The notes beneath the pieces were generated by a model. It was not told where the DNA came from, did no database searches, and was given only the letters and a program-made list of their open reading frames with translations. Below, in pieces: positions 297 to 13,336 of a DNA stretch of 13,336 bases. Every line of letters starts with the position of its first letter. The first letter of the stretch is position 1. The DNA is from a virus (Duplodnaviria; Heunggongvirae; Uroviricota; Caudoviricetes): IMG/VR virus record IMGVR_UViG_2751185957_000009. One strand, written 5' to 3'. Made by a program: the position numbers and the translations under genes.

Positions 297-2510
297 GATC
301 CCACGATTAAAGGCGGGCGCTTAATCGTTGAAAAAGATGGGATTACCGTCCTTGCCGCTATCGAAAAGGGAGGATTACTGGAGGTTAAAGAGGGGGGATT
401 AGCGATTGCGGTAGATCAGAAAGCAGGCGGTGCTATTAAAGCAAGCACGCGGGTCATGGAGGCATTCGGAATAAACCGTCTCGGTCAGTTCGAAATCAAG
501 AATGGTATTGCTAACAATATGCTGTTGGAAAACGGCGGAAGTTTGCGAGTTGAAGAAAATGACTTCGCTTATAATACTACTGTAGATAGTGGCGGCTTAC
601 TGGAGGTTATGGATGGCGGGACTGCAACTGGCGTTGATAAAAAAGCAGGCGGAAAATTAATTGTCTCAACGAATGCGCTGGAAGTGAGTGGTACAAACAG
701 TAAAGGCCAATTTAGTATAAAAGATGGTGTGTCAAAAAATTATGAACTGGATGATGGTTCCGGGCTCATTGTTATGGAGGACACGCAGGCCATTGATACT
801 ATCCTTGATGAGCATGCCACTATGCAATCGCTGGGAAAGGATACTGGTACGAAAGTGCAGGCAAATGCGGTATATGATCTCGGTCGATCAGACCAGAATG
901 GAAGTATCACGTATTCCTCTAAAGCCATCTCTGAAAATATGGTTATCAACAATGGCCGCGCTAATGTCTGGGCTGGCACAATGGTTAACGTGTCAGTCAG
1001 AGGGAATGATGGCATTCTTGAGGTCATGAAGCCGCAAATAAATTATGCACCCGCTATGTTGGTGGGTAAGGTAGTGGTTTCTGAGGGCGCTTCTTTTAGA
1101 ACGCATGGTGCCGTGGATACCAGCAAAGCGGACGTTTCGCTCGAAAATAGCGTATGGGCCATCATTGCCGATATCACTACGACGAACCAAAACACCCTCC
1201 TCAACTTAGCCAACCTTGCGATGTCTGACGCAAATGTGATTATGATGGATGAGCCAGTGACTCGTTCATCAGTGACGGCAAGTGCGGAAAATTTCATTAC
1301 GTTGACCACCAATACCCTGTCGGGAAACGGCAATTTTTATATGCGTACCGATATGGCTAATCATCAGAGCGATCAGCTCAACGTCACCGGTCAGGCAACA
1401 GGTGATTTCAAAATATTCGTGACGGACACCGGTGCCAGCCCGGCAGCAGGAGATAGCCTTACACTGGTAACAACGGGCGGCGGTGATGCTGCATTTACGT
1501 TGGGCAATGCCGGAGGCGTTGTTGATATCGGTACGTATGAATATACCTTGCTGGATAATGGCAACCATAGCTGGAGTTTGGCAGAGAATCGCGCGCAAAT
1601 TACCCCTTCAACCACTGATGTGCTGAATATGGCGGCCGCACAACCGCTGGTATTTGATGCAGAACTGGACACCGTGCGTGAGCGTCTTGGTAGCGTAAAA
1701 AGCGTTAGTTACGATACGGCGATGTGGAGTTCGGCAATTAACACCCGCAACAACGTGACCACTGATGCGGGAGCTGGTTTTGAGCAAACATTGACGGGCC
1801 TGACGCTCGGTATCGATAGCCGTTTCTCCCGTGAAGAAAGCAGTACAATTCGCGGCTTGTTCTTTGGTTACTCTCATTCTGATATTGGTTTTGATCGCGG
1901 CGGAAAAGGTAATATCGATAGCTATACCCTGGGGGCTTATGCCGGTTGGGAGCATCAGAACGGTGCCTATGTTGATGGGGTGGTGAAAGTTGACCGTTTT
2001 GCCAACACCATCCATGGCAAGATGAGTAATGGGGCAACAGCGTTTGGCGATTACAATAGTAACGGCGCGGGTGCTCATGTTGAGAGCGGGTTCCGTTGGG
2101 TTGACGGATTGTGGAGTGTTAGACCCTATCTGGCCTTTACCGGCTTTACCACAGATGGTCAGGACTACACGTTATCAAACGGCATGCGCGCTGATGTGGG
2201 AAATACCCGGATATTACGCGCTGAAGCGGGAACGGCGGTAAGCTATCACATGGACCTGCAAAATGGTACGACGCTGGAACCCTGGCTGAAAGCCGCCGTA
2301 CGTCAGGAATACGCCGATTCTAACCATGTGAAAGTTAATGACGATGGCAAATTTAATAATGATGTGGCTGGAACCCCTGGCGTTTATCAGGCTGGGATAA
2401 GGTCATCGTTTACCCCGACGTTAAGCGGTCATTTGTCAGTCAGCTATGGCAATGGCGCAGGGGTAGAATCGCCGTGGAATACTCAGGCGGGAGTGGTCTG
2501 GACGTTCTGA
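270..2510 (+). CDS. Autotransporter (AIDA-I/Ag43-like) truncated by IS2 insertion; passenger beta-helix repeats plus C-terminal beta-barrel; probably a pseudogene
   Basis: 746-aa ORF whose first 9 codons, including the ATG, lie inside the IS2 terminal repeat. Passenger region has ~19-aa repeats (GGxLxVxxGGxAxxVDxKAGG). C-terminal ~270 aa has alternating aromatic/hydrophobic beta-strands and ends in WTF, typical of autotransporter barrels. No signal peptide or native N-terminus is visible. Confidence 0.75.
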
Positions 2511-2571
2511 TAACAGAAAATAAACAGGCTGTGATGTGTCACGGTCTGTTTATCAAATTAATTGCAGATAT

Positions 2572-2600
2572 AAAAAACCAACCGTAAAGGTTGGTTTTTT
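2572..2600 (+). terminator. Rho-independent terminator after the autotransporter gene (symmetric, possibly bidirectional)
   Basis: AAAAAA-CCAACC-GTAAA-GGTTGG-TTTTTT: perfect 6-bp stem flanked by an A-run and a T-run, 60 nt after the stop at 2510. Confidence 0.6.
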
Positions 2601-3014
2601 CTTGGGATTTTTCACGAGAGTAGTTTAATTGAGCGTGTAACTTCATGATTTAAAATAATGTATATGATTCAACTTTTAAACCGTATAACCAAACGTATAA
2701 CTAAAATGATTTGCTGAAAAAATGCACAATTCAGGGTCGGATTTTCCCGGATGTTTAATTTATAAAAACGAAGCTGGTGGATGATCTGCGTGGTGATTTC
2801 CACCATTCAGAGCAGGGGCGGTCATCATGCCCATGCCATAACAAAAACCCCATATTCGTGGTTTTTCTGTGTTGTGGCTATTCTGCCGTTGCCGTGCTGG
2901 TGGATATTTCCGTTATGGGGATCACCATATCGGCATCATGCCCACCAGCCAGCGCAATTTTGCGCTTTGCTTTAAGTTCAGCAAGTTACCGCGCCGGATT
3001 ACGCCAATGGCTGT

Positions 3015-3194
3015 TTCCGAAAGAATCAACGGGTTAGGCCTTAATGGGCTGCGTGGTAATTATCAGCATCCAGAATATGACGGGTTATGTTTCCGACCTC
3101 CTCAATTTGAGGTTCCCGAAAATATCAACGGGTTAGGCTGGTTTCCCCGATGTTCGCCGCTGGCGAATTTCGAAAATATCAACCAGTTACCGCC
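3015..3194. repeat. Four direct repeats of an ~18-bp motif (AA(A/G)AAT(A/C)TCAACGGGTTAGG-like) with ~50-bp period
   Basis: Copies centred near 3024, 3073 (degenerate), 3119 and 3174. Largely non-coding; the last copy overlaps the 3' end of ORF 3187-3468. Confidence 0.5.
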
Positions 3195-3468
3195 GCAACC
3201 GCTCCGGCTTCTTCCAGTGGTATGTAATTTTCTCCGTTTCCCGATACAGTGCCACGCGGCGATTGTAGGCCAGCATTTCAAGAACGCGGATCCGTATGTT
3301 GCGCATATCCACATCATTAAGCTGGATACCATCACGGCGCATCACCTCAGCAACAACACGCGCATAATTTTCGGCTGTCACGCTGTCCGGCTGCGTGGCC
3401 TGTTCGTCAGTCTGCTGGCTGATTCCACCAGCACGGCGGATTAATCCCAGTATTTCGGCTTCTGTCAT
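3187..3468 (-). CDS. Hypothetical protein (93 aa) at the distal end of the satellite
   Basis: ORF with ATG preceded by AGGTG; non-repetitive, charged/helical composition. No family recognised. Confidence 0.45.
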   Translation of the reverse strand: MTEAEILGLIRRAGGISQQTDEQATQPDSVTAENYARVVAEVMRRDGIQLNDVDMRNIRIRVLEMLAYNRRVALYRETEKITYHWKKPERLRR

Positions 3469-3501
3469 TGTGCACCTATCGTTCTGATTGTCTGGTGTCG
3501 T

Positions 3502-3684
3502 CGGGTCCTTCCTGGAATTATGGACCCGTTACGGGGCGGCGACCTCGCGCGTTTTCACTATTTATGAAAATTTTTCGGGATCCATGTCCGGTTTCTCTAC
3601 AAGTTAACCATATGAAAAATATAAAAACATGCTTTCCATGAACCGGACATGCGCAAAAAACAGACACTAAAACCGGACATCGAA
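3502..3684 (+). other. Lambda-type cos site copy 1: cosN core plus cosB-like array of three AACCGGACAT sites around an AT-rich segment
   Basis: 3531-3578 (ACGGGGCGGCGACCTCGCGCGTTTTCACTATTTATGAAAATTTTTCGG) is near-identical to the lambda left end as I recall it (GGGCGGCGACCTCGCGGGTTTTCGCTATTTATGAAAATTTTCCGG); the 12-nt cohesive-end sequence GGGCGGCGACCT is at 3534-3545. AACCGGACAT occurs at 3641-3650 and 3671-3680 and inverted at 3584-3593. Confidence 0.75.
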
Positions 3685-3748
3685 CCAGTTAACCGAAAGT
3701 GTGCACAAATCACATGCATTGCTGCGAGTGATTAACAAGTTATCGGCT

Positions 3749-4183
3749 TTACTGTTCTGTATCGGCTGATTGCTCCATGCTGGCACGGCGAACGCTTACG
3801 GCATGACGCCACCCAGCCAGAAAGCCAGCCATTTTATTTCGTGCCTTGCTCACATCTTCCGGTGAATAGCCGTAAATCTGCAAACCTTCATCAAATCGAT
3901 GTTCTGTTTCTTCACTGGAGTACTCGTCACGCTCAGATGAAAGCAGCCTGGCAAACATAATTTTTTCCAGCGCACTGGTTTCTACGTGATATCTGATGGC
4001 CTCAAGACGGCTTTTACCTGAAGACCAAAGCAATGTATGCCCGATGTGATAACCGCCAGACTTTCCGCGATCCGCATTAAGATACGGCATCCCCTGTTTG
4101 GTCCATGCGCGAATAGTGGTTCTGTTAACCTTGAAATGTTCAGCTATTTCCTGCTGACTTACAAAACAAGCTTTATCAATCAT
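3749..4183 (-). CDS. Nu1-like small terminase subunit / packaging-specificity protein (144 aa, shorter than lambda gpNu1)
   Basis: The N-terminus (DKACFVSQQEIAEHFKVNRTTIRAWTKQGMPY) parallels the lambda gpNu1 winged-HTH region (NKKQLADIFGASIRTIQNWQEQGMPV). AAGGT Shine-Dalgarno 6 nt before the ATG. Lies between two cosN copies. Confidence 0.7.
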   Translation of the reverse strand: MIDKACFVSQQEIAEHFKVNRTTIRAWTKQGMPYLNADRGKSGGYHIGHTLLWSSGKSRLEAIRYHVETSALEKIMFARLLSSERDEYSSEETEHRFDEGLQIYGYSPEDVSKARNKMAGFLAGWRHAVSVRRASMEQSADTEQ

Positions 4184-4251
4184 AATGTTACCTTAACTGC
4201 ATGGTTAAATATTAATCAAGTGGTGGTGGTGTCACCTTCACGGAAAAACGT

Positions 4252-4316
4252 CATAAATAGCGAAAACCCGCGAGGTCGCCGCCCCGTAACGGGCCATAAT
4301 TCCAGGAAGGACCCGC
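4252..4316 (-). other. Lambda-type cosN copy 2, inverted relative to copy 1, upstream of the Nu1-like gene
   Basis: Reverse complement of 4252-4316 (GGGTCCTTCCTGGAATTATGGCCCGTTACGGGGCGGCGACCTCGCGGGTTTTCGCTATTTATGA) matches copy 1 over ~70 bp and matches lambda cosN including GGGCGGCGACCT (4274-4285 on the minus strand). No AACCGGACAT sites follow it. Confidence 0.75.
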
Positions 4317-4338
4317 AAAAAAGCCGGATTTCTCCGGC
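4317..4338 (-). terminator. Rho-independent terminator ending the capsid operon
   Basis: On the minus strand: GCCGGA-GAAA-TCCGGC followed by TTTTTT, 7 nt after the stop at 4345. Confidence 0.7.
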
Positions 4339-4344
4339 CTTGTC

Positions 4345-4758
4345 TCAGATGGTTTTCAGTATGCGATCGATGTCGCCGTCATCGCCTGGGTTTCTGCCAT
4401 CGTATGCCATGCCAGCTGATACGGTTTGTGGGCTGTGCATGTCCATAAAGTTTTCAAAGGCTGCGGTAAGCTCTGGTGCAACCTTCGGGCGTTCCTGCTC
4501 TATGGTCATGTTCAGGATGTTTTTAGCCGTATCAACATCGATACAAGGCACGTTTGCCATTGCACGCAACAGCGGCTGATAGTCTTTATGCTCATGAAGC
4601 GCCATAATCGCATCAGCGCGCGGCTTGTCCTGCTCTTCCAGTTTGTTGAGTTGATATACGGCCTCGTAGGTTGATAAACCTCTGTCAGCCATTGCCCGCG
4701 CTTCGGCTTTAAATTTACTCGCCAGCGGTAGCGCCATGATGCTTTCATTCGTTGCCAT
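4345..4758 (-). CDS. Hypothetical protein (137 aa), last gene of the capsid operon
   Basis: ORF with GGGGGA Shine-Dalgarno, starts 12 nt after the D-like stop. Acidic C-terminus. No family recognised. Confidence 0.55.
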   Translation of the reverse strand: MATNESIMALPLASKFKAEARAMADRGLSTYEAVYQLNKLEEQDKPRADAIMALHEHKDYQPLLRAMANVPCIDVDTAKNILNMTIEQERPKVAPELTAAFENFMDMHSPQTVSAGMAYDGRNPGDDGDIDRILKTI

Positions 4759-4770
4759 CGTTCCCCCTGC

Positions 4771-5106
4771 TTATCGGGCCAGCGGCTGAACGGATACGCC
4801 AGAACCCGCAAAGGCGGCGCATTTTTTCGCATCGGTGTCGACGCTCTCAGGCCAGTTAACGGCGGCAATATTGAATATCCCCGTCTTGTAACACTGTGCT
4901 GATTTCTGCTTTGACGTGTCCACGAGGTACGAAGTCAGATAAACAGCCTTGCCAGATTCCTGACCATCCCACGGCTTAAACTCGCCATTGTCCACCAGCA
5001 TCAGCGGGGTAAATTCCTGAATAACGCCAGCATCAGCGGCAAAATGTACCAGTGTCGTTGATACCTGCTGACTGCCTGCAAATAACTCAATATATGGAGT
5101 GTCCAT
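4771..5106 (-). CDS. Head decoration protein, lambda gpD homolog (111 aa)
   Basis: Similarity to lambda gpD as recalled: TPLMLVDNGEFKPWDG vs TPLMLDTSSRKLVAWDG; CYKTGIFNIAAVNWPESVDTDAKKCAAFAGSGVSV vs [35 protein letters not shown]. Same length class. GGGGGA Shine-Dalgarno. Confidence 0.85.
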   Translation of the reverse strand: MDTPYIELFAGSQQVSTTLVHFAADAGVIQEFTPLMLVDNGEFKPWDGQESGKAVYLTSYLVDTSKQKSAQCYKTGIFNIAAVNWPESVDTDAKKCAAFAGSGVSVQPLAR

Positions 5107-5117
5107 ATAATCCCCCG

Positions 5118-6173
5118 TTAACCAATTTTGACGGTAACAAATTTGCGAATATCTGCCGGAACCGGCTGCGGTGCGCTGTGTGTCTGCACGTACTCAATCG
5201 CCGGATCGCCGTCCTCAATCCAGTTTTTCGGGTAGTACATGTTTTGCGTTGCGCCCGTTCTTACCGCTTCCTGATCCATAATCGCACCATAGGCCACCAG
5301 CCCTTTATTGTTGGTGTTGCCCAGGACCAGCAAATCAGGCTCAAGGAAATATTTTTCGGTGCCGTCGCTGTCAGTGTATTTGCCGGAATAGACAATAAGA
5401 GCAATATCGCCCAGATAGCCTTTAAAGCTCACCACTTCGCCCAGGTTTTTACAGGCCATTTCTGCGGCGGATTCTGAACCACGGGAAAGATCGTACAGTT
5501 CACGGAATTTTTTAAAGCTGCGTAACGTGCGCCATACCTCAGCGCCCATAATCATGACGTTGGCGGGGCAACCTGCCTGATCTGCGTATAGTTCGATGTC
5601 ATAGATTGGATCGTAAATATCTTTATCATGCTCGGACCATTTTTTGCCGTCGGACTGCTCTATGATGTTTTTTTCCGGTATCTTCCAGTCGATTTCATAG
5701 CGTTCTATGCCTTCGCCCTCAATGATGTTTTTTCCGGTCGTTACCGCATTCACCGCCAGCCATTCCACGCGTGCCTTAATGGCGTTTATCTGGCGGCGCA
5801 TGTTGCCAGTAATCAGGCGCATACGGCGATAGGTAGGGTCGTTAAGCTGTGCCGGATCTTCTCCAGCCATGCGCATGATGGTTTTCGTTGGATCGATTTC
5901 GTGCTTTGGCTTCATGTAGCCAGGTTTGATTGTGCTGGTTTCGTACCCTTTATCGCGCTGAACCTGGCTACCCACCATAGGCGAACAAAACGCCGACATG
6001 GTGACTTCTTCAATGTCCAGGGTATCCAGCATGATGTTTTGCGTGCTGAATGTCGCCACGTTCGGGAAAAACAGCGTGGTAAACAGAGGGCTGAATTTAA
6101 AATCCGCAATATCCCCGCGATTCAGGTACATAAAAAGCTGGTTAGTGTTAAGTGCCGTTGCTTTGCCTGCCAT
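5118..6173 (-). CDS. Major capsid protein, lambda gpE homolog (351 aa)
   Basis: Conserved blocks shared with lambda gpE along the whole length: DFKFSPLFTTLFF, IKPGYMKPKHEIDP, GEDPAQLNDPTYRRMRLI, VSFKGYLGDIALIVYSG, YPKNWIEDGDPAIEY. Roughly 45-50% identity by eye. Confidence 0.9.
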   Translation of the reverse strand: MAGKATALNTNQLFMYLNRGDIADFKFSPLFTTLFFPNVATFSTQNIMLDTLDIEEVTMSAFCSPMVGSQVQRDKGYETSTIKPGYMKPKHEIDPTKTIMRMAGEDPAQLNDPTYRRMRLITGNMRRQINAIKARVEWLAVNAVTTGKNIIEGEGIERYEIDWKIPEKNIIEQSDGKKWSEHDKDIYDPIYDIELYADQAGCPANVMIMGAEVWRTLRSFKKFRELYDLSRGSESAAEMACKNLGEVVSFKGYLGDIALIVYSGKYTDSDGTEKYFLEPDLLVLGNTNNKGLVAYGAIMDQEAVRTGATQNMYYPKNWIEDGDPAIEYVQTHSAPQPVPADIRKFVTVKIG

Positions 6174-6379
6174 TATTCACCCCCATAATTTTTATGCATC
6201 CCAAGCGCCGCAAGTAAATAAGAGCGTACAAGTGAACCTATCGACGGCTCCGGCGTCATCAGCGGATCCAGTCCAGCCGCCACGCCAGCCTCATAGTTTT
6301 TTTTGTGGCGCTGCTTGAGCACCTCCACGATTTCGGGGCTTATGTACACCGAAACACCGCCTTTTTTCTCTTCAGCCAT
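6173..6379 (-). CDS. Hypothetical small protein (68 aa), first gene of the capsid operon, coupled to the E-like gene
   Basis: Its stop overlaps the E-like start (TAATG). AGGAA Shine-Dalgarno. No family recognised. Confidence 0.55.
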   Translation of the reverse strand: MAEEKKGGVSVYISPEIVEVLKQRHKKNYEAGVAAGLDPLMTPEPSIGSLVRSYLLAALGMHKNYGGE

Positions 6380-6407
6380 AGTAAGAAATTCCTCTTCGAC
6401 TAAAAAA

Positions 6408-6463
6408 ATCAGGACTGGATGTTTATCCAGTCCTGATTATAATCAGAATTGCATTTTATGCAA
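6408..6463 (-). promoter_or_regulatory. Putative sigma70 promoter (TTGCAT-16-TATAAT) overlapped by a perfect 13-bp inverted repeat, upstream of the capsid operon
   Basis: Minus strand: -35 TTGCAT (6463-6458), -10 TATAAT (6441-6436). Palindrome ATCAGGACTGGAT-GTTT-ATCCAGTCCTGAT at 6408-6437, followed on the minus strand by seven T. A second small palindrome TTGCATTTTATGCAA at 6449-6463. Confidence 0.5.
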
Positions 6464-6540
6464 TAATATTGAGTTATGTTGCAAATTATGAAATGATTAT
6501 CCCGATCACGAACGCCAGTGCATCCAAAAACCTCATATGC

Positions 6541-6609
6541 AAAAGCCCGATAAGAACCCTCTGACCTTATCGGGCTTTTTTGGGCGCAAAAAAGCCGGAT
6601 TGCTCCGGC
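6541..6609 (-). terminator. Tandem rho-independent terminators after the 74-aa gene
   Basis: Hairpin 1 (6545-6575): 9-bp stem GCCCGATAA/TTATCGGGC flanked by A4 and T6, so bidirectional. Hairpin 2 (6594-6609): GCCGGA-TTGC-TCCGGC with an A6 run, which is a T-run on the minus strand. Confidence 0.65.
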
Positions 6610-6629
6610 TATGTGTGCTGTGTGCTGGA

Positions 6630-6854
6630 TCAGTCTCTGATCTCTTTCAGAAATTCTATCAATGCATCTATCTGTTCAGGATTTACCGCCAGCATTTCAC
6701 CGGATAGAGCACATCTCACAAAACCATGCTGATCCTTTTCAATCAGTGCGCCCGTCTCCAGGAATGCGCGGTAATCATTGATGCTCATCGTCTCCATGTT
6801 GTCAGCATGGTATTTATCACGCTGTTTTAATATCTCATCAAATTTCATCGGCAT
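6630..6854 (-). CDS. Hypothetical small protein (74 aa), stand-alone gene bracketed by terminators
   Basis: ORF with its own upstream intergenic region (6855-6950), terminators on both sides. No family recognised. Confidence 0.5.
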   Translation of the reverse strand: MPMKFDEILKQRDKYHADNMETMSINDYRAFLETGALIEKDQHGFVRCALSGEMLAVNPEQIDALIEFLKEIRD

Positions 6855-6950
6855 TGTTTTTTTCCTCTGTTGTGTCTGTTTGTTTCAGATAGTAACTATG
6901 CCTGACCGTGACGAAAACCCGGTAATGCGCCATACCGTTTCAACTGGTGC

Positions 6951-6972
6951 AAAAAAGCCGGATTTCTCCGGC
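6951..6972 (-). terminator. Rho-independent terminator after the PerC-like gene
   Basis: AAAAAA-GCCGGA-TTTC-TCCGGC, reading hairpin then T6 on the minus strand, 8 nt after the stop at 6980. Same module as 4317-4338. Confidence 0.7.
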
Positions 6973-6979
6973 TGTTTGA

Positions 6980-7252
6980 TTAGCTGTCCTGGTAATTGCG
7001 CCATATTTCATCACCAGCACCATCTATACCCATTTCGGCATAAGTGCGATCGACTGCCTTTTTCAGGTCTCCGAAATTATCCGGCGGCTCCGGTGCCCTC
7101 TGTGCCTTCCTTGAACATTCCAGCCGTCGCATCGTGATGTGATGCCGTTCCTTGTCTGTCTCCACCAGCTGCATGACTTCACCCCATCGCGCCGCCGCCC
7201 TCCGGTAAAAGCCTTTCGCCTCCAGTTCCTCCGCTATGCGGTCATGTACCAT
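6980..7252 (-). CDS. PerC-family transcriptional regulator homolog (about 90 aa; an upstream in-frame start at 7372 is possible)
   Basis: Motif IAEELEAKGFYRRAAARWGEVM matches the PerC-family signature as I recall it (AExLExxGxWRRAAxRW). The ATG at 7252 is preceded by GAGGGGG and lies 11 nt after the SSB stop. Family assignment from memory. Confidence 0.6.
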   Translation of the reverse strand: MVHDRIAEELEAKGFYRRAAARWGEVMQLVETDKERHHITMRRLECSRKAQRAPEPPDNFGDLKKAVDRTYAEMGIDGAGDEIWRNYQDS

Positions 7253-7262
7253 CGTCACCCCC

Positions 7263-7673
7263 TCAGAACGAAATATCATCACCGTAAGGGTCATCGCCTC
7301 CCGCTGGTGGCTGATTACCCTGTGTGCCTGTGGTTTTGCGTCTGTTCCCGCCTGGACGTGCCGCGCGGGCACTGATTACGCTGTCTGCGATAACCTGCCA
7401 GCCCTGCCGCGTTTCTCCGTTCTGTCCGGTCCACTGGCTTACCTGCATCGTGCCGGATACGCTGGCAACATCGCCTTTTTGATGTTTAGCCAGGAAGTCG
7501 GCCTGTTTGCCAAATGCGATGACCGATAACCATAACGTCGCCTGTCCGTCCTGTGCCTGGCTGCATGGCAAAGATACCGCCATACGCGCCAGCGTCATCG
7601 GTGTGCCCTTGCTGGTCTGTTTTACCTGCGGGTCGTCCACCAGCCGCCCGTAAGCGGCTATCTGTGCCGTCAT
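7263..7673 (-). CDS. ssb: Single-stranded DNA-binding protein (136 aa)
   Basis: OB-fold pattern (GRLVDDP..., WLSVIAFGKQADFLAKHQKGDVASVSGTMQVSQWTGQNGETRQGWQVIADSV), Gly/Pro-rich linker and acidic C-terminal tip DDPYGDDISF resembling the SSB DDDIPF tail. Strong GGAGAGGTGG Shine-Dalgarno. Confidence 0.8.
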   Translation of the reverse strand: MTAQIAAYGRLVDDPQVKQTSKGTPMTLARMAVSLPCSQAQDGQATLWLSVIAFGKQADFLAKHQKGDVASVSGTMQVSQWTGQNGETRQGWQVIADSVISARAARPGGNRRKTTGTQGNQPPAGGDDPYGDDISF

Positions 7674-7921
7674 AATTCCACCTCTCCGGTTTTAACGTTG
7701 ATGGTTGTTACCTGTTCCGCTTCGGCAATCTCCCGTTCTGTCAGCGTGGCAAAGTTTGCCGCCGCCGTGGTCATGAATGCGCTTATCAGGTCGGGATGTT
7801 CCTTCGCGTATCCTTCCCGCGTGTGGCGGTCTATCGTTCTGATTGCCACCTTTAAGGTGTGCTCAGTCATGTCTAACGCTTTATATTTTGGCTCTGTTCT
7901 GTCTCTGCGTTTTTGGGTCAT
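7670..7921 (-). CDS. Hypothetical protein (83 aa), coupled to ssb
   Basis: Its stop overlaps the ssb start (ATGA). ATG at 7921 with GAGAGG Shine-Dalgarno. The longer form in the ORF track would start at a GTG inside the iteron array. Confidence 0.5.
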   Translation of the reverse strand: MTQKRRDRTEPKYKALDMTEHTLKVAIRTIDRHTREGYAKEHPDLISAFMTTAAANFATLTEREIAEAEQVTTINVKTGEVEL

Positions 7922-7930
7922 TTCTCGCAA

Positions 7931-8123
7931 CCTCTCACTTTTTCGCCTCACTTTTTCAAGCGTCTCACTTCGTCGCAGTTGGGATTTTCGGTTTTTCTAT
8001 GTGTGTGTTTTATAAGTATTTTTTTACCCCTCACTTTTGAGGATGTATACAGGTCGAAAAGTGAGGGAGAGCGGGCTAATTTTGGCCCTCTTTCTATCCC
8101 CCTCGCTTTTGCTCCTCACTTTT
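7931..8123. repeat. Putative replication origin: at least six CCTCACTTTT iterons around an AT-rich spacer, directly 3' of the replicase gene
   Basis: Iterons at 7934, 7948, 7964 (variant), 8029, 8101 (variant) and 8114, plus one inverted copy at 8057-8066. AT-rich stretch 7991-8027. The last iteron overlaps the replicase stop codon. Confidence 0.65.
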
Positions 8124-9522
8124 ATAGCGGCGCTACATCATCCCCATCGATACTAATAACCCCATCTTTTTCCAGCTTGTACAGCCAGCGCCGGAAGTTT
8201 TTCATTTCATACCCCAGCTTTTTCATGTCATCACGTAACAGCGGGATCGTGCACTTGTCGCCGTTCTGTGTGCGTGAACGGATGCACCCCCATAGCGCGG
8301 TATGGTTTTCCGTCTTGTTCCCTGCCTCCTCGATGCGCTCCAGTTCAACAGGAGGGCGCGGATCATCCACCACCACCAGCGACGTGATTAATTCACCGTC
8401 AGCGTCGGTAAAAAGCTCCACCACGCGTAAGTCATATGCGGCTTCTTTGAGTTCCTCCGCGTCCTTCATTTTGGTGCATGAGATAACCAGCGCTTTGCTT
8501 CCTGCGTCCTCCCTGCGTATCCGGTATTCAGCATCCAGCGAAGCACGAAATGCACTGGAACCGCGCGCGCCTTTCGTCTCATCCTTGCCGGAATGGTGAA
8601 CCACCAGCACCGTGGCCCCTGTGCGTCGTTTCAGTTCGTCACAACCACGGATAAACGCCCCCATATCACGGGAATCATTTTCATCATTCCCACCAAAGCA
8701 ACGCGCCAGCGTATCCAGAATAATCATGCGTACAGGTTTACCCGTTTCCCGCTCCACCTGACGGGCAGCGATAACCATTTCATCAACATCAAGCGGGGCA
8801 GCCGGAAAGATGGGGCGGTTTACCAGATACAGATTTTTCACCTGCTCATCGTGCACAACCTCCCAGGCTTTTACACGACGCGGAACGCCGATACCGCCTT
8901 CACCAACCACATAGAGAACCGCACCATGTGCAACCCTGCGGCCTCCCCACTGGCGACCAGTGGCAACATGGCACGCCCACGATCCGGCAAGGAATGATTT
9001 ATAGGACCCGCTAGCCCCGTATATGCTGCATAGCGATACCGCCGGAATAATCCCCTTAACCACGTAATCCAGTTGCGTGTCGTATCCGGTAGATCCAACG
9101 CTCATCGGTAGCGTGGTTTTTCGCTGGTGGTTTTTTTCTTCCACCGGCTCTTTCCCGCGCACCCGTTCCAGGTATTCGCGCCAGTTCTCCCGCATATGGC
9201 TGTGCATCCCTTCGGGGTAATAATTCGCATCAGTTACACCCGCCGCCGCCAGCTTGTGCGCAATGGCATTAATATTTGATGGCCTGATGTGGCCTGCCTT
9301 GTACAGCCGGACACAATAGCGCCCCTCGTCGATGATTCTCAGGTCTGCCAGTTCATCCAGTTGATCATCAGCCAGCACAACGGGAGGCACATTATCGCCA
9401 GCCAGTCGCCCGTCCTGTTCCTGCCACTGTTTTGCATGTGCCCAGGCATCACTACCCGCAAAAATAATGACTTCGGTCATCTTGTCGTAAGGCTGTTTTT
9501 TTAAGTTCGGTGCGCTTTTCAT
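8122..9522 (-). CDS. Replication protein with RecA-like AAA_25 ATPase domain (satellite replicase/helicase, 466 aa)
   Basis: P-loop-like YGASGSYKSF, Walker B-like MIILD, and the signature VLVVHHSGKDETKGARGSSAFRASLDAEY typical of AAA_25 replicative ATPases. Its start overlaps the upstream ORF stop (ATGA). Confidence 0.8.
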   Translation of the reverse strand: MKSAPNLKKQPYDKMTEVIIFAGSDAWAHAKQWQEQDGRLAGDNVPPVVLADDQLDELADLRIIDEGRYCVRLYKAGHIRPSNINAIAHKLAAAGVTDANYYPEGMHSHMRENWREYLERVRGKEPVEEKNHQRKTTLPMSVGSTGYDTQLDYVVKGIIPAVSLCSIYGASGSYKSFLAGSWACHVATGRQWGGRRVAHGAVLYVVGEGGIGVPRRVKAWEVVHDEQVKNLYLVNRPIFPAAPLDVDEMVIAARQVERETGKPVRMIILDTLARCFGGNDENDSRDMGAFIRGCDELKRRTGATVLVVHHSGKDETKGARGSSAFRASLDAEYRIRREDAGSKALVISCTKMKDAEELKEAAYDLRVVELFTDADGELITSLVVVDDPRPPVELERIEEAGNKTENHTALWGCIRSRTQNGDKCTIPLLRDDMKKLGYEMKNFRRWLYKLEKDGVISIDGDDVAPL

Positions 9523-9818
9523 TTCTTGCCCCTGAATCCGTTAATCATGGTTTTCAGCTTCTGGATGTTTGCCCGTGCCCTGGCGTTGCTGGTGGGCACG
9601 TTATGCGGCGCGGTCTGTACCAGAGAAAAATCACGCCGGAACTGATAAACAGGCATCACGCAATCATATTCGTAACCTTCACGGCGGTAGGTTACACGCC
9701 GTTCTTCCACGCCCTTAATCATTACCGTGCCGCCGTACTGGTCGCGGTAAATATCACCGCGCGTAAATTTAGGGTGAGTGTTGCCACTGGCAGTTAAGCC
9801 AGAATATTTAAGTTTCAT
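9519..9818 (-). CDS. Hypothetical protein (99 aa), coupled to the replicase
   Basis: ORF with GGAGA Shine-Dalgarno; its stop overlaps the replicase ATG. Confidence 0.5.
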   Translation of the reverse strand: MKLKYSGLTASGNTHPKFTRGDIYRDQYGGTVMIKGVEERRVTYRREGYEYDCVMPVYQFRRDFSLVQTAPHNVPTSNARARANIQKLKTMINGFRGKK

Positions 9819-9823
9819 TATTT

Positions 9824-10057
9824 TTATTCTCCGGTGTGCTGTTCTTTATATCTGTCGTGCAATAGATCTATTTCTTGCAGTTCCATTATTACAGGCTCAA
9901 GAAGCGTTATTAATGCCGTGGCAATTCTTGATTTTTGTTTGTCGCGTTCATTGTCGCCAAGTGTTTCAAGCCATATGCGCAATATTTCCAGCATGTTTTC
10001 ACTGTGAGAAAGTGCAAGAAATGCGCGGTCTATTGTTTCGTGGTAAATATCACGCAT
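9824..10057 (-). CDS. Hypothetical small protein (77 aa)
   Basis: ORF whose ATG overlaps the upstream stop (ATGCGTGA). Helical, acidic composition. Confidence 0.45.
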   Translation of the reverse strand: MRDIYHETIDRAFLALSHSENMLEILRIWLETLGDNERDKQKSRIATALITLLEPVIMELQEIDLLHDRYKEQHTGE

Positions 10058-10283
10058 GGCTTACATCCTCAGGAAATTTTCTTCTGTAACGCGCCTCTGC
10101 CACATATTCCGCATAATCGGCGGCGATATTCAGTACATCAAGCCCCGTTGATTTATATTCTCTCGTGGAAAGTAAGAAAAAAGCCGCTCTAATAAGTTCT
10201 GGCATTGACGAAAGCGCATCAGCCGCATCATCAGGAACGCCGGGAAATTCCTGTTTCAGGGAATTAAAACGATCATCACGCAT
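10050..10283 (-). CDS. Hypothetical small protein (77 aa from ATG at 10283; the ORF track extends to 10331)
   Basis: ATG at 10283 follows a G8 run acting as Shine-Dalgarno and overlaps the upstream stop (ATGCGTGA). Confidence 0.45.
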   Translation of the reverse strand: MRDDRFNSLKQEFPGVPDDAADALSSMPELIRAAFFLLSTREYKSTGLDVLNIAADYAEYVAEARYRRKFPEDVSHA

Positions 10284-10497
10284 AACCCCCCCCATTTTCA
10301 CAATCAGCAACAAGAATATTTTTAGCGTCATTCAGCGACCGCGTTGCGATGTATCGGATACATTCCAGGGCGAACTGTGTCCGGTCTTTCTGTTCTTCTC
10401 CCTGCGCAAGCTCTGCAGTGCATTCAATATCAATAAGCGCGTGCATCAGCGTAGTGAGTGCGGCGGCTGCTGCGTTCGGTGTGGTTTTATTGTGCAT
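10276..10497 (-). CDS. Hypothetical small protein (73 aa from ATG at 10497; the ORF track extends to 10539)
   Basis: ATG at 10497 with GGGGGA Shine-Dalgarno, overlapping the end of the upstream ORF by 11 nt. Confidence 0.45.
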   Translation of the reverse strand: MHNKTTPNAAAAALTTLMHALIDIECTAELAQGEEQKDRTQFALECIRYIATRSLNDAKNILVADCENGGGYA

Positions 10498-10687
10498 AGG
10501 TTTCCCCCTGACGAATACGGGCGGCGAATACAGCAACACAACCGGACGGGCAACGGCTACGCGCTTCGCGTTCCGTCCAGGCGGTTACGTGGATGATTTG
10601 AGATTCTCCGGCACTCAGGGCCAGAAAACGCCACACAAAGGCCGTTTGTGTGTGTACAAGGTGTGGTATATGATTTACGGCAACCAT
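10487..10687 (-). CDS. Hypothetical small protein (66 aa), first gene of the leftward replication operon
   Basis: ATG at 10687 preceded by AGGAG; the longer ORF (to 10786) would run through the palindromic operators, so the short form is preferred. Confidence 0.4.
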   Translation of the reverse strand: MVAVNHIPHLVHTQTAFVWRFLALSAGESQIIHVTAWTEREARSRCPSGCVAVFAARIRQGETYAQ

Positions 10688-10773
10688 AACGGCTCCTAGT
10701 TTACGTTGTTGGTTAGAAGCCCTGCGAGTGGTAATGACACTTGCGGGGCTTTGCTTTTTTAAGTGCTCTTGTG

Positions 10774-10824
10774 TTAAGGTGGCCACCTAACAATGGAAAG
10801 GCTAATTCAATAGGTGACCACTTG
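10774..10824. promoter_or_regulatory. Divergent control region with two palindromic operator-like sites (GGTGGCCACC and GGTGACCAC)
   Basis: TTAAGGTGGCCACCTAA at 10774-10790 and ATAGGTGACCACTTG at 10811-10824, centres ~35 bp apart, between the divergently oriented operons. An imperfect hairpin plus T-run lies at 10718-10760. Confidence 0.5.
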
Positions 10825-10887
10825 TCAATAATCAAACGCGATAAAAGCCCTAAAGGGGACGGGCAATCCCCACAATTCAGAATGCGA

Positions 10888-11013
10888 ATTTCTCCAGAGC
10901 TAAAAGAGCAATTCGACAAAGAAGCACAGAGCGACGGCATAAGCCTAGCCAACTGGCTTAAAGAGTTGGGGCGCACTGAACTAAAGCGGCGCGGCATAGA
11001 ACCCAAAGGATAA
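10888..11013 (+). CDS. Putative ribbon-helix-helix (Arc/CopG-like) DNA-binding protein (42 aa from ATG; the ORF track starts at TTG 10741)
   Basis: MRISPELKEQFDKEAQSDGISLANWLKELGRTEL fits the beta-strand, helix, G-loop, helix pattern of RHH proteins. Start uncertain; weak ribosome-binding site. Confidence 0.4.
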   Translation: MSPELKEQFDKEAQSDGISLANWLKELGRTELKRRGIEPKG

Positions 11014-11070
11014 AAACTATCAGCGCCGTGGTGTGAGGTATTACGGCGCATTGCTATGCAGGACAACACA

Positions 11071-11244
11071 ATGACCGATAAAGAATTGACCAAAACATTA
11101 TCACCGGCACGGAAAAGACGGCGCAGAAAGATAGAGCATGAATCAGAAAGATTCGCACCATGTGCTTTTGCCCTTGAGCAATTCCTTAAAGAGTATAGGG
11201 AAAAGCGCTCATTGCAGGTATGGCAACGAACTGAACCAGACTGA
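11071..11244 (+). CDS. Hypothetical small basic protein (57 aa; alternative start at 11056)
   Basis: ORF with AGGA 8 nt before the ATG at 11071; contains an RKRRRRK basic patch. Convergent with alpA. Confidence 0.35.
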   Translation: MTDKELTKTLSPARKRRRRKIEHESERFAPCAFALEQFLKEYREKRSLQVWQRTEPD

Positions 11245-11337
11245 TTGCATTGCCCACCAGCCTGATAGCGGCTATCATCCCCGTGCTTATGTTTGGGATC
11301 ATATACACATAAGGCGCAGCGGGTTAATTGTTCAGAA

Positions 11338-11366
11338 AGGCGGCTCCATATCGGGGCCGCTTTTTT
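11338..11366. terminator. Terminator-like hairpin between the convergent plus-strand module and alpA
   Basis: GGCGGC...GCCGC stem followed by TTTTTT on the plus strand, 27 nt after the alpA stop on the other strand. Confidence 0.4.
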
Positions 11367-11392
11367 CGTGTTTGTCATATCTGTGATACCCG

Positions 11393-11599
11393 TTAAGCAG
11401 CCGTTCCGCGTGCTTCCTGTTCGCGTTCTTTCTGCCAGGCCAACACATCATCCTCATACCATCCGCGACGGCGTAAACCAACGCGAAAACCCTGCGGAAA
11501 TTCTCCGGCGTTGATCATGCTTTGCAGCGTGCTGTCTGCCTTGATGTGGATAATTTTTTTTACTTCCTGGCGAAAGATAATTTTTCTGATTGCTTCCAT
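11393..11599 (-). CDS. alpA: AlpA-family transcriptional regulator / excisionase-like protein (68 aa)
   Basis: Motif RQEVKKIIHIKADSTLQSMINAGEFPQGFRVGLRRRGWYEDDVLAWQKER matches the AlpA (Phage_AlpA) pattern as recalled (EV..I.....STLY.....G.FP..IKLG.R.V.W...EV..W). AAGGT Shine-Dalgarno. Confidence 0.8.
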   Translation of the reverse strand: MEAIRKIIFRQEVKKIIHIKADSTLQSMINAGEFPQGFRVGLRRRGWYEDDVLAWQKEREQEARGTAA

Positions 11600-11731
11600 C
11601 GTGATTTACCTTGTGAATCCGGTGTATTCCGGTGACAAATACGGTAAATCATCGGATATGGGTAAAAACAGTTCCCACCGTTTTTAAACGGTATACACCG
11701 TTTTTATATTGATGATTTGAAATGGAATTAT

Positions 11732-11754
11732 AAAAAAAGCGGCATTTCTGCCGC
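11732..11754 (-). terminator. Rho-independent terminator after ORF 11766-12017
   Basis: AAAAAAA-GCGGCA-TTTC-TGCCGC: 6-bp stem, TTTC loop, T7 on the minus strand, 12 nt after the stop. Confidence 0.65.
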
Positions 11755-11765
11755 TTCCAGGATTG

Positions 11766-12017
11766 TTACCGCCATTTTTTGGGCCTGCCTCCGATCTTCA
11801 TAGATGCCGGACGTACGACCTTATCAATACTTACCGCCAGATTTCTGGAAGCGCCACGGGATACCAGAAAATCTACTACCTGTTTTTTTGATGGGGCCGT
11901 CGTTCTGTCCTCCGGATCGTAGGTTGACCAAAATTCATGCTGAACCATCAGGGCCAGTTGCAGCCCGTCGCAATTGCATCTGATATTTTTTTGCATCTTA
12001 ACGGTTTCATGTTTCAC
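11766..12017 (-). CDS. Hypothetical small protein next to the integrase, possibly an excisionase-like DNA-binding protein (start uncertain)
   Basis: ORF between int and alpA with basic C-terminal tail KIGGRPKKWR. The track start is a GTG; in-frame ATGs at 11996 and 11948 lack good ribosome-binding sites. Confidence 0.4.
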   Translation of the reverse strand: MKHETVKMQKNIRCNCDGLQLALMVQHEFWSTYDPEDRTTAPSKKQVVDFLVSRGASRNLAVSIDKVVRPASMKIGGRPKKWR

Positions 12018-12094
12018 GGCCTTGTCGTTAAATTTGATGCAATTATACGACGGTTTTACATGGTTTTCGTAGTTTTTACTGGTTTTCTGTACAG

Positions 12095-13336
12095 CTACAC
12101 GGCTCGGATACCCCTTTTACCACTGGCGAGGGTTACGCCCGTCGCCGCAGCCTCGACAAATTCGCCCCACCAGCGCATCAGCACGATGCGTTTTTCTATG
12201 TAGTTGCTCCGGTTGTATGCCCGTCTAACTTCGTTGGTGTCGACGTGGGCAAGTGCCGCCTCTATTACGTCCGGCTCGAATCCTTCCTCGTTCGCTGCTG
12301 TGCTGAATATGGCGCGTAATCCATGAGACACCAGCACGCCAGCGAATCCCATACGCCGCAATGCTGCGTTAGCTGTCTGGCTGTTCATCGGCTGCTGTGG
12401 GTCTTTCAGACTTGGGAAAACGTAATTGCGGTGGTGGCTGATTGGTTTCATGGCCTCCAGCACCGCCATAGCCTGACCGGAAAGCGGGATAACGTGATCC
12501 CTGCGCATCTTCATGCGTCCGGCAGGTATCGTCCATTGCTTCGCGTCCAGGTTGATTTCATCCCACCGCGTTGATGACGCTTCGGCGGGACGGGTTACGG
12601 TCAGTAACTGCCATTCAATCAGTAATCTGGTCTGCCGTTCTGTTGCCGATACTGATAAAGCCTGCATAAGCTCCGGCAGCTGTTCGGGGCGGATTGTTGG
12701 CATATGTTTTTTTACAGGTGAGGGAAACGCCTTACGCACATTCATAGCCGGATTGGCATCAATCAGCCCACTGTTGGCGGCGTAATCCATTACCTCATTA
12801 ACGCGCTGTAAAACCCGCTTGAGTGTTTCCAGGTTGCCGCGCTCCTTGATGGGTGTAAGCACTTCAACGAACCTTCGGGCGGTGAGGGTATCTATTGGCG
12901 TGTTGCCGATGAACGGGAATACATATTTATCCAGCGAACGCCAGATGTCTTTAATCGTGTTGGGGGCCAGATTCTGGCTGATTTTCACCTGGTACCATGC
13001 CGCCGCCACATTTTCGAACGTGTTCCCTTGTCTTCGGGCCTCTGCCTCTCGTTTTTTCTTCTCATGGCCCTGCGGGTCAGTTCCGGCACTGATTAACGCT
13101 CTGTACTCGCTACGGCGTTTTCTGGCATCAGCCAGGGAAACATCATCAAGCGATCCAAAACTCAGCAATATTCTTTTTTTGTCCGATGGCCGGTAGTAGG
13201 AAAATCGCCAGAGTTTTGATCCGGACGGTTTGACCAGGAGAAAAAGCCCTCCGCCGTCCTGTAGGGTGTATTCCTTTTCCGCTGGTCTGGCTGCTTTGAT
13301 CTGCACCGTGGTTAATGGGGGTGTTTTTCTCGCCAT
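12095..13336 (-). CDS. int: P4-type tyrosine integrase (413 aa)
   Basis: N-terminal arm-binding domain typical of P4-like integrases (LTTVQIKAARPAEKEYTLQDGGGLFLLVKPSGSKLWRFSYY), C-terminal catalytic region with HGLR and the tyrosine in RRAYNRSNY. Start codon is the last three bases of the window. Confidence 0.9.
   Translation of the reverse strand: MARKTPPLTTVQIKAARPAEKEYTLQDGGGLFLLVKPSGSKLWRFSYYRPSDKKRILLSFGSLDDVSLADARKRRSEYRALISAGTDPQGHEKKKREAEARRQGNTFENVAAAWYQVKISQNLAPNTIKDIWRSLDKYVFPFIGNTPIDTLTARRFVEVLTPIKERGNLETLKRVLQRVNEVMDYAANSGLIDANPAMNVRKAFPSPVKKHMPTIRPEQLPELMQALSVSATERQTRLLIEWQLLTVTRPAEASSTRWDEINLDAKQWTIPAGRMKMRRDHVIPLSGQAMAVLEAMKPISHHRNYVFPSLKDPQQPMNSQTANAALRRMGFAGVLVSHGLRAIFSTAANEEGFEPDVIEAALAHVDTNEVRRAYNRSNYIEKRIVLMRWWGEFVEAAATGVTLASGKRGIRAV

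Follow-up and report, generated by a model that had tools for sequence, protein, structure and literature searches.

An array of putative IHF sites and small palindromes at the operon end of enterobacterial PICI-type phage satellites

Introduction

Among the vehicles of virulence and defence genes are the PICIs, a widespread kind of satellite. At one end of such an island, in a 13,336-nt stretch of DNA recorded in IMG/VR (IMGVR_UViG_2751185957_000009; hereafter the window), a short motif recurs at nearly even spacing just beyond the last gene of the operon. What might such an array be for? An earlier note on this DNA took it for a protein-binding array and offered integrase arm-type sites, a partition-like site and binding sites for the adjacent 93-aa protein as candidates. 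That some protein binds here is probably right, judging from the sequence; the protein to which the boxes point, host IHF, was not named there. Here we describe the array and its relatives in other satellites, compare it with known systems and weigh the ways in which it may be read.

The Island and Its Left Boundary

The window holds a PICI-type phage satellite inserted at tRNA-Pro beside yejO (Table 1), and its positions 2625-3200 are 100% identical to E. coli Nissle 1917. The left boundary had been thought impossible to fix from the window. Most E. coli genomes stop matching it at 2612, and in these yejO is followed directly by tRNA-Pro. The match to the empty site of K-12 also ends at 2612, with the core CACGAGAG immediately after it, and the repeats therefore lie inside the island. 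Repeats outside the island in empty-site strains, the case that the earlier note had set against its own proposal, are not what was found. The 3′ end of tRNA-Pro is duplicated at the distal junction, over only 8 bp in the window and over 10 bp in a related island, L001. The 8-bp duplication agrees with the truncation (‘damage’) of tRNA fragments reported for PICIs at Pro tRNA genes (PMC10111431).

Table 1. Positions of the array and of the other features of the window discussed in the text
Feature	Position	Strand	Remarks
Left (integrase-distal) junction, 8-bp tRNA-Pro 3′ end remnant CACGAGAG	2613-2620		Alignment with K-12 empty site and both L001 junctions
Doubled CGTATAAC	2682-2689 and 2694-2701	+	62-81 bp inside the distal junction; outside the array
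Unit 0 (variant)	2951-2992	+	Hairpin AGCGCAATTTTGCGCT 2951-2966; box-like GTTCAGCAAGTTACCGC 2976-2992
Unit 1	3003-3036	+	Dyad GCCAATGGC 3003-3011; IHF-consensus box AATCAACGGGTTA 3024-3036
Unit 2	3071-3089	+	Degenerate copy CAGAATATGACGGGTTATG; read from sequence
Unit 3	3100-3135	+	Dyad CCTCAATTTGAGG 3100-3112; IHF-consensus box TATCAACGGGTTA 3123-3135
Unit 4	3153-3189	+	Dyad TTCGCCGCTGGCGAA 3153-3167; IHF-consensus box TATCAACCAGTTA 3177-3189
Island genes	3187-13336	− (all)	Gram-negative PICI-type satellite
93-aa protein	3187-3468	−	Last gene of the operon; PHROG 1561; function unknown; almost always adjoins the array
GGGTCCT, cosQ-like	3503-3509; 4308-4314	− (4308-4314)	One per cosN
Lambda-type cosN GGGCGGCGACCT, perfect	3534-3545; 4273-4284	+; −	Inverted orientation, flanking rpp
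Rpp-like 144-aa winged-helix protein	3749-4183	−	Has residues described for Rpp (PMC9026076)
Lambda E-like capsid, D-like decoration and scaffold-like proteins		−	Island capsid module
SSB gene		−	Island gene
Candidate origin iterons TTTTNCNCCTCACTTTT, three copies	7939-7955, 8022-8038, 8107-8123		83-85 bp apart, just 3′ of the helicase/primase gene
Helicase/primase, AAA_25 domain	8122-9522	−
P4-type integrase with arm-binding domain (PF13356)	12095-13336	−
Chi GCTGGTGG	2773, 2896, 7303, 9123, 9588	+
Chi GCTGGTGG	2942, 3425, 4992, 5294, 7162, 7637, 8373, 8601, 11254, 12167	−

The Repeat Array

The direct repeats of about 50 bp described earlier are borne out: the boxes lie on the plus strand, start at 3020, 3070, 3119 and 3173, and are thus spaced by 50, 49 and 54 bp. 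The 20-mer GAAAATATCAACGGGTTAGG, with up to three mismatches allowed, matches 3019-3038 and 3118-3137 only (0.01 matches expected), and a repeat search groups 3013-3039, 3112-3138 and 3166-3192 as one family. Compared by eye with the consensus first proposed, copies 1, 3 and 4 agree at 17, 19 and 15 of 19 positions, respectively. Copy 2 agrees at 15 of 19 and has lost one base, a deletion that destroys its ATCAA core; the homologous segment of other islands reads CAGAATWTGAAGGGTGAYG. Upstream of the interval first reported, 48 bp before copy 1, lies a fifth and more diverged unit (unit 0). Its box departs from the IHF core by a single mismatch (TTCAG for ATCAG), and its homologue in L003 has a perfect box, TATCAGCAAGTTA, after ACGCAATTTTGCGT.

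Only the box, ~20-27 nt long, is repeated; the sequence between boxes differs, which is why Tandem Repeats Finder, run at a minimum score of 30, found nothing in the array. The array is thus not a strict tandem repeat, one whose head-to-tail copies are similar over the whole period. It had been called mostly non-coding, and this appears to hold: a 191-aa plus-strand ORF across it has no PHROG match, and RefSeq places no gene there in identical or related islands. An Rfam scan of 2400-3800 gave no match overlapping 2945-3200 even at E ≤ 10.

The surrounding DNA is itself rich in small inverted repeats. A perfect 14-bp inverted repeat containing Chi (GCCGTGCTGGTGGA at 2891-2904, TCCACCAGCACGGC at 3424-3437) encloses the array together with most of the 93-aa gene. 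More hairpins recur in the terminal non-coding region without an IHF box, as at 2791-2805 and at homologous positions in L003-L007 and L033; examples are TGGTNATTNNNACCA followed by TTCAGAAT, ATGGGGATCCCCAT, and CCGGA-T(n)-TCCGG. The array belongs to a wider patchwork of such hairpins.

The IHF Consensus in the Boxes

The boxes of units 1, 3 and 4 are exact matches to the 13-bp IHF consensus WATCAANNNNTTR and are the only such matches in the 13.3 kb on either strand. Three thus fall on one strand within 166 bp, whereas 0.65 are expected in the whole window, a comparison to be read with the knowledge that the match was noticed post hoc. In wider usage the consensus is given as WATCAR. The consensus is retained in arrays linked to Salmonella and to Citrobacter, while the N positions and the flanks vary. 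In L033, which is Salmonella-linked, five successive hairpin-linked boxes keep W-ATCAA-N4-TTA, with CGAG, TGAG, TCGA, CGGG and TAAC as N4 and with both flanks and the hairpins differing as well. These boxes were located with the consensus pattern, and even so they give the least circular support available here for conservation of the IHF consensus itself. Most units were gathered with a pattern requiring ATCA..GTTA, and conservation at those positions is therefore partly circular.

The base preceding ATCA is A or T in all 42 distinct units (~30 loci), and the immediate upstream flank is A/T-rich. The lambda H′ site has an A/T-rich tract ~8 bp upstream of its IHF core. In the array the sequence directly upstream (GAAAAT, GAAAGA or CTTTTA) touches the core rather than standing ~8 bp away. 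Within E. coli, bases outside the consensus are also conserved, namely Y after ATCAR, G before TTA, and GGC/CCGC after TTA; either recent common descent or a second protein might account for this. The segment at 3071-3089 and its homologues are conserved yet contain no IHF site, and IHF therefore leaves some of the conservation unexplained.

Dyads Before the Boxes

The boxes are preceded by short dyads. In the window the centres of those at 3003-3011, 3100-3112 and 3153-3167, and of the variant at 2951-2966, each lie 18 bp upstream of the A in ATCA; over the 42 distinct units, the centre is at −18 or −17.5 in almost every one from E. coli. The dyads have GC arms and an AT centre, and their sequence varies while the symmetry is kept. 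At least eight stems occupy this fixed position: CCTCA/TGAGG, TTCGCC/GGCGAA, ACGCAA/TTGCGT, CCCCC/GGGGG, CAGCC/GGCTG, CCTGC/GCAGG, CCCA/TGGG and GCC/GGC. In the anchored alignment the covariation score is 0.273 vs. 0.138 when shuffled, a value that none of 500 shuffles reaches, and each of the six inner-helix pairs shows change at both of its bases. Because the units are paralogues and related, the covariation is supportive and does not amount to a probability.

Single unit segments are more stable than their shuffles (mean z = −2.1), whereas the folding of the whole region as RNA, on either strand, is no better than that of shuffles (z about −1.1). The density of hairpins in 2621-3200 is mildly raised (5 vs. 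2.8 ± 1.7 in shuffled sequence). As to strand, the fixed outer columns pair better on the minus strand (60 C.A vs. 18 G.T on the plus strand) and the minus-strand fold is the more stable in 26 of 37 units, but a Wilcoxon test of the stability difference gives p = 0.2, which is not significant. No strand bias appeared when the first mismatch past each stem was counted in an unbiased way. With no robust strand preference of wobble pairs, structure in RNA and structure in DNA are therefore not distinguishable here.

Distribution Among Satellites

In other E. coli strains arrays occur at satellite ends beside phoQ, clpS and yejO and on the ydgV side; five insertion sites are represented in total (yejO/proL, phoQ, clpS, the ydgV side and ileX). 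Twenty-two satellite-sized IMG/VR contigs carry the array, and two of the terminal units were detected in 868 of the 5426 complete genomes of E. coli. The number of units per array varies from 1 to 7. EcCICFT073 (NC_004431.1, 1377930-1389200), which lies next to phoQ, has the array too; the detailed studies of that island do not mention it (PMC6092414; PMC6739421). In the limited collection of papers searched, those that treat IHF together with PICIs do not treat this region and none contains the box sequences; the array thus appears not to have been described, in EcCICFT073 or elsewhere in that literature.

The pattern of the array matched none of 50,697 phage records, and in the plasmid collection it matched four only, all of them E. 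coli ‘plasmid’ records. A strict two-unit pattern found three unrelated matches among the GTDB representative genomes, none in an enterobacterium. A generic search of IMG/VR for three IHF cores in a row returned more than 120 matches, mostly AT-rich or unrelated, and was of no diagnostic value.

The islands that carry the array are otherwise diverse. Near-identical units accompany integrases that are 22-24% identical to that of the window. Three packaging modules occur with the array: lambda cos with Rpp or a Nu1-like TerS; a P27-type TerS with TerL and HNH; and TerS with capsid. Two replication proteins or modules are found, and the terminal region is a mosaic of pieces common to several islands. 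The position at the operon end is the sole constant across array-bearing islands.

The 93-aa Gene and the Operon End

How closely is the array tied to the last gene? From the stop codon of that gene it extends toward the integrase-distal attachment junction. Of 15 distinct 3′ contexts of the 93-aa gene, 13 have an IHF-consensus box lying across the stop codon, over protein identities from 100% to ~38%, a count scored, like the boxes of L033 and L037, with the IHF-consensus pattern and thus only partly independent support. Each of the 13 boxes has a different hairpin before it, and the box TTA reads on the opposite strand as the stop codon TAA, which in unit 4 occupies 3187-3189. The homologue beside the L033 array is ~40% identical. 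Homologues beside diverged arrays cluster with Salmonella enterica proteins, and one array is in a Citrobacter assembly. The gene is absent from the islands L004, L005, L020, L030 and L032, which keep the array.

The protein belongs to a narrow family, has no Pfam match and falls in a PHROG family without assigned function. Its AlphaFold model has three helices at low confidence (pLDDT 68); comparison of the model with PDB structures gave no significant match and it shows no recognisable DNA-binding fold. The nine C-terminal residues, WKKPERLRR (3187-3216, minus strand), form a basic tail that is nearly invariant even at 42% identity, with some synonymous codon variation. The RLRR codons and the stop make up a small hairpin, after which comes the last box, U-rich in its reverse complement. 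On the sense strand, a hairpin with a U-rich run at the stop receives a weak terminator-like call in three islands.

Neighbouring Sites and Rejected Candidates

Doubled CGTATAAC motifs are likely to be the real arm-type sites of the window's integrase, and we regard them as candidates from their sequence and placement. Besides the pair near the distal junction, four more (two inverted pairs, 25414-25461) lie on the integrase side of L001, between int and tRNA-Pro, together with a single conventional IHF consensus at 25531, which stands between these motifs and the core. Doubled motifs whose geometry resembles that of the CGTATAAC pair have been reported in other PICIs (PMC10111431). Islands at the phoQ site have a different doubled motif, TGACTACACC/TAACTACACC.

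The cos site of the earlier note is indeed present, as one of two: the two cosN of the window match the cos2/cos1 pair of EcCICFT073 (PMC6092414; PMC6739421). The array was rejected as a part of cos, as it lies on the cosQ side of the nearer one and more than 1 kb from the second, and a cloned cos is enough for transfer (PMC6739421). Nor does it have the layout of a lambda-type cosB, in which terminase R sites and an IHF site lie close to cosN, ~170 bp away at most, on its Nu1 side. A PICI origin lies directly 3′ of pri-rep and has an AT-rich stretch with a set of iterons on either side (PMC6092414). The array lies ~4.9 kb from the helicase/primase gene, and other iteron-like repeats occupy the expected place (Table 1); it was rejected as the origin.

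Several further candidates were dismissed. A CRISPR-like array was one, since a short constant part and a palindromic variable part, as found here, are the opposite of the CRISPR arrangement. The repeats of type III toxin-antitoxin systems sit before the toxin gene and are near-identical. Integron attC sites were also rejected. Intrinsic terminators are not indicated, there being no T-runs after the dyads, and no DnaA, Fis, MatP or SlmA box could be matched by eye.

Two other repeats of the island deserve a record. Fifteen Chi octamers occur in the 13.3 kb, where ~0.2 are expected per strand from base composition; the ten on the minus strand are, as we reason, oriented so that they would stop RecBCD entering from the cut rpp-proximal cos, which suggests protection of a Gam-less satellite. 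In the non-coding DNA between the capsid module and the SSB gene, a 33-nt element is present in two copies, 88% identical and 363 bp apart (6583-6615 and 6946-6978). It carries a GCCGGA....TCCGGC hairpin preceded by an A-run and may be terminator-like or another structured repeat.

Comparison With Known Systems

The nearest relatives in design are the RIB/RIP elements (BIME-1) of E. coli, in which, at the 3′ ends of transcription units, two REP palindromes reportedly enclose an IHF site. Both they and the array combine an IHF consensus with hairpin-forming palindromes just downstream of the last gene. The array shares their place at the 3′ end of a transcription unit (13 of the 15 contexts), whereas the two convergent REP (PU) sequences flanking the IHF site are missing: the array has no REP seed, the only one in the window being at 9282. 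A 50-kb scan of the RefSeq copy of K-12 returned no REP/RIP features, and we compared the array directly with the K-12 sequence that we take to be RIP1. There, two REP units of ~35 nt are inverted around one near-consensus IHF site; the array, in contrast, has one short dyad (arms of 3-11 bp) upstream of each site and up to seven units in direct tandem, and it is restricted to satellites whereas RIB/RIP elements are genome-wide. No sequence resemblance was seen between RIP1 and the array. Given the two long REP units and this lack of resemblance, the relation is one of functional analogy and not of membership.

The IHF sites of lambda (H1, H2 and H′ of attP; I1 of cosB) share with the array the 13-bp consensus and a location near att or cos in a mobile element. 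They differ in being single, at fixed distances from the core or cosN and with Int or terminase sites as neighbours; the array is reiterated, at a long and variable distance from the core, and independent of the type of integrase and of packaging.

A partition-like site had also been suggested. In the sopC locus of F, a 43-bp unit containing a short inverted repeat is reiterated in tandem, and in P1 parS an IHF site is flanked by ParB boxes. Regularly spaced dyad units recall sopC, and the involvement of IHF recalls P1 parS. Unlike these, the array has no neighbour with a Par-type domain among the ORFs scanned, and its dyads vary between units; we found neither the cognate ParA/ParB genes nor the identical repeats of a partition centromere, and this suggestion found no support. 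Finally, the iterons of PICI origins and the array are both short direct repeats in a PICI, but the array is common to islands with different replication proteins.

Alternative Readings

Could the array serve recombination or packaging, or nothing at all? The earlier idea of integrase arm-type sites, here widened to any accessory part of attP, draws on the non-coding DNA next to the attachment junction, on the arm-binding domain of the integrase and on the fact that IHF sites are normal in attP regions. Arm sites would be found on both attP arms at fixed short distances and would change with the integrase. The array, however, lies 330-575 bp from the integrase-distal junction and its core, on one arm only, and the distance varies even between islands that share an att site (~260 bp in L004, ~410 bp in the window); its units stay the same when the integrases are unrelated, as in EcCICFT073. 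The CGTATAAC pairs on both arms, with a single IHF site near the core, fit better, and the idea is now the least probable of all. A role in packaging is scarcely more probable. The array would here be a reiterated cosB-like set of R-like GTTTCC motifs and IHF sites in alternation, serving to recruit or titrate the small terminase of the helper, or Rpp. GTTTCC(G) is reminiscent of the lambda R-site core and recurs beside the dyads in E. coli units, lambda cosB pairs R sites with an IHF site (PMC9026076), and the array lies downstream of a cos-rpp or terS-terL module in each island type. But GTTTCC is missing from the Salmonella-linked array, and islands with P27-type TerS/TerL/HNH carry the same array units. 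Of the two cos, the nearer is 345-560 bp from the array, which lies on its cosQ side, and the rpp-proximal one is 1.1-1.3 kb away; cloned cos fragments alone confer transfer (PMC6739421). That the array has no function, being a decaying tandem duplication carried by recombination between satellites, seems quite unlikely. The varying number of units, the degenerate ones at 3071-3089 and 2976-2992 and the mosaic of shared pieces are what decay would leave; the consensus positions and the spacing of the hairpins, however, are kept down to ~38% identity of the neighbouring protein while the rest changes, and the stems covary.

Two readings put another molecule first. The hairpins may act in RNA, the array being the 3′ UTR of the late (minus-strand) transcript and giving exonuclease protection or processing like REP, with the box secondary or an AU-rich spacer. 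We think this possible but doubtful. The dyads covary, the stop codon of the last gene is where the array starts, the outer columns and 26 of 37 units lean to the minus strand, and three islands have the weak terminator-like hairpin with its U-rich run. Against it, the strand difference is not significant and disappears in the unbiased mismatch count, no Rfam family matches, the region as a whole folds like shuffles, and nine IHF consensus positions kept in diverged arrays are left unaccounted for. Alternatively, a protein of the island, most obviously the 93-aa protein and possibly with IHF as cofactor, or a protein of the helper phage may bind the array as a regulatory or sequestering platform. 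The 93-aa gene is tightly linked to the array in Escherichia and in relatives from clusters that include Salmonella and Citrobacter proteins; its basic tail is nearly invariant, and conservation within E. coli reaches beyond the IHF consensus. Yet five islands keep the array without the gene, the protein has neither a recognisable DNA-binding fold nor a structural match, and the Salmonella-linked array keeps the IHF core and not the flanks. Because the dyad sequences differ, one sequence-specific protein cannot read them. We consider such binding unlikely.

A Proposed Terminal Element of the Late Operon

With a probability of roughly one half, we favor the view that the phased IHF-site array with its hairpins is a terminal cis element of the unidirectional operon in enterobacterial PICI-type satellites. 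It builds on what was observed: the consensus matches and their clustering, the covarying dyads, the last-gene position, and the independence from integrase, att site, packaging and replication. From these we infer both the binding of IHF and the function. IHF would occupy three to seven sites, 48-54 bp apart (about five helical turns), and, once bound, would draw the 200-350 bp that follow the last gene together into a compact, folded nucleoprotein structure. Hairpins would arise from the dyads, either in the transcript or, possibly, in DNA. Together, the IHF sites and the dyads may mark the end of a heavily transcribed late operon and insulate it from att and int in the excised circle. Since the excised circle places the array after the late operon and before att/int, the role that fits most simply is one at the operon end or as an insulator; the insulating part is modelled, by analogy, on the role proposed for RIB/RIP.

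A bolder proposal, which we advance tentatively, is that the array may be an unrecognised, lineage-wide cis element that Gram-negative PICIs require, acting through an IHF structure or through processed RNAs. In one version, an IHF nucleoprotein structure would control read-through from the late operon, which in the excised circle leads into int/alpA, or, alternatively, would couple host physiology (the level of IHF) to excision, replication or transfer of the satellite. In the other, units would be cut from the late transcript as structured RNAs that act on the helper phage or on the 93-aa protein.

Implications

EcCICFT073 is the Gram-negative model that has been dissected gene by gene, and we found nothing written on its non-coding end of ~0.5 kb. 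If the array proves to be merely a passive structure at the operon end, the finding is an ordinary one. The array can serve as an inexpensive sequence marker of the island end distal to the integrase. If the boxes are conserved IHF sites, a host architectural protein enters the biology of the satellites. The array is also an easily mutated target for asking how the operon ends and how late transcription is kept from the integration functions after circularisation. As a second, independent case of an IHF site plus palindrome at an operon end, it would bear on the function of RIB/RIP as well.
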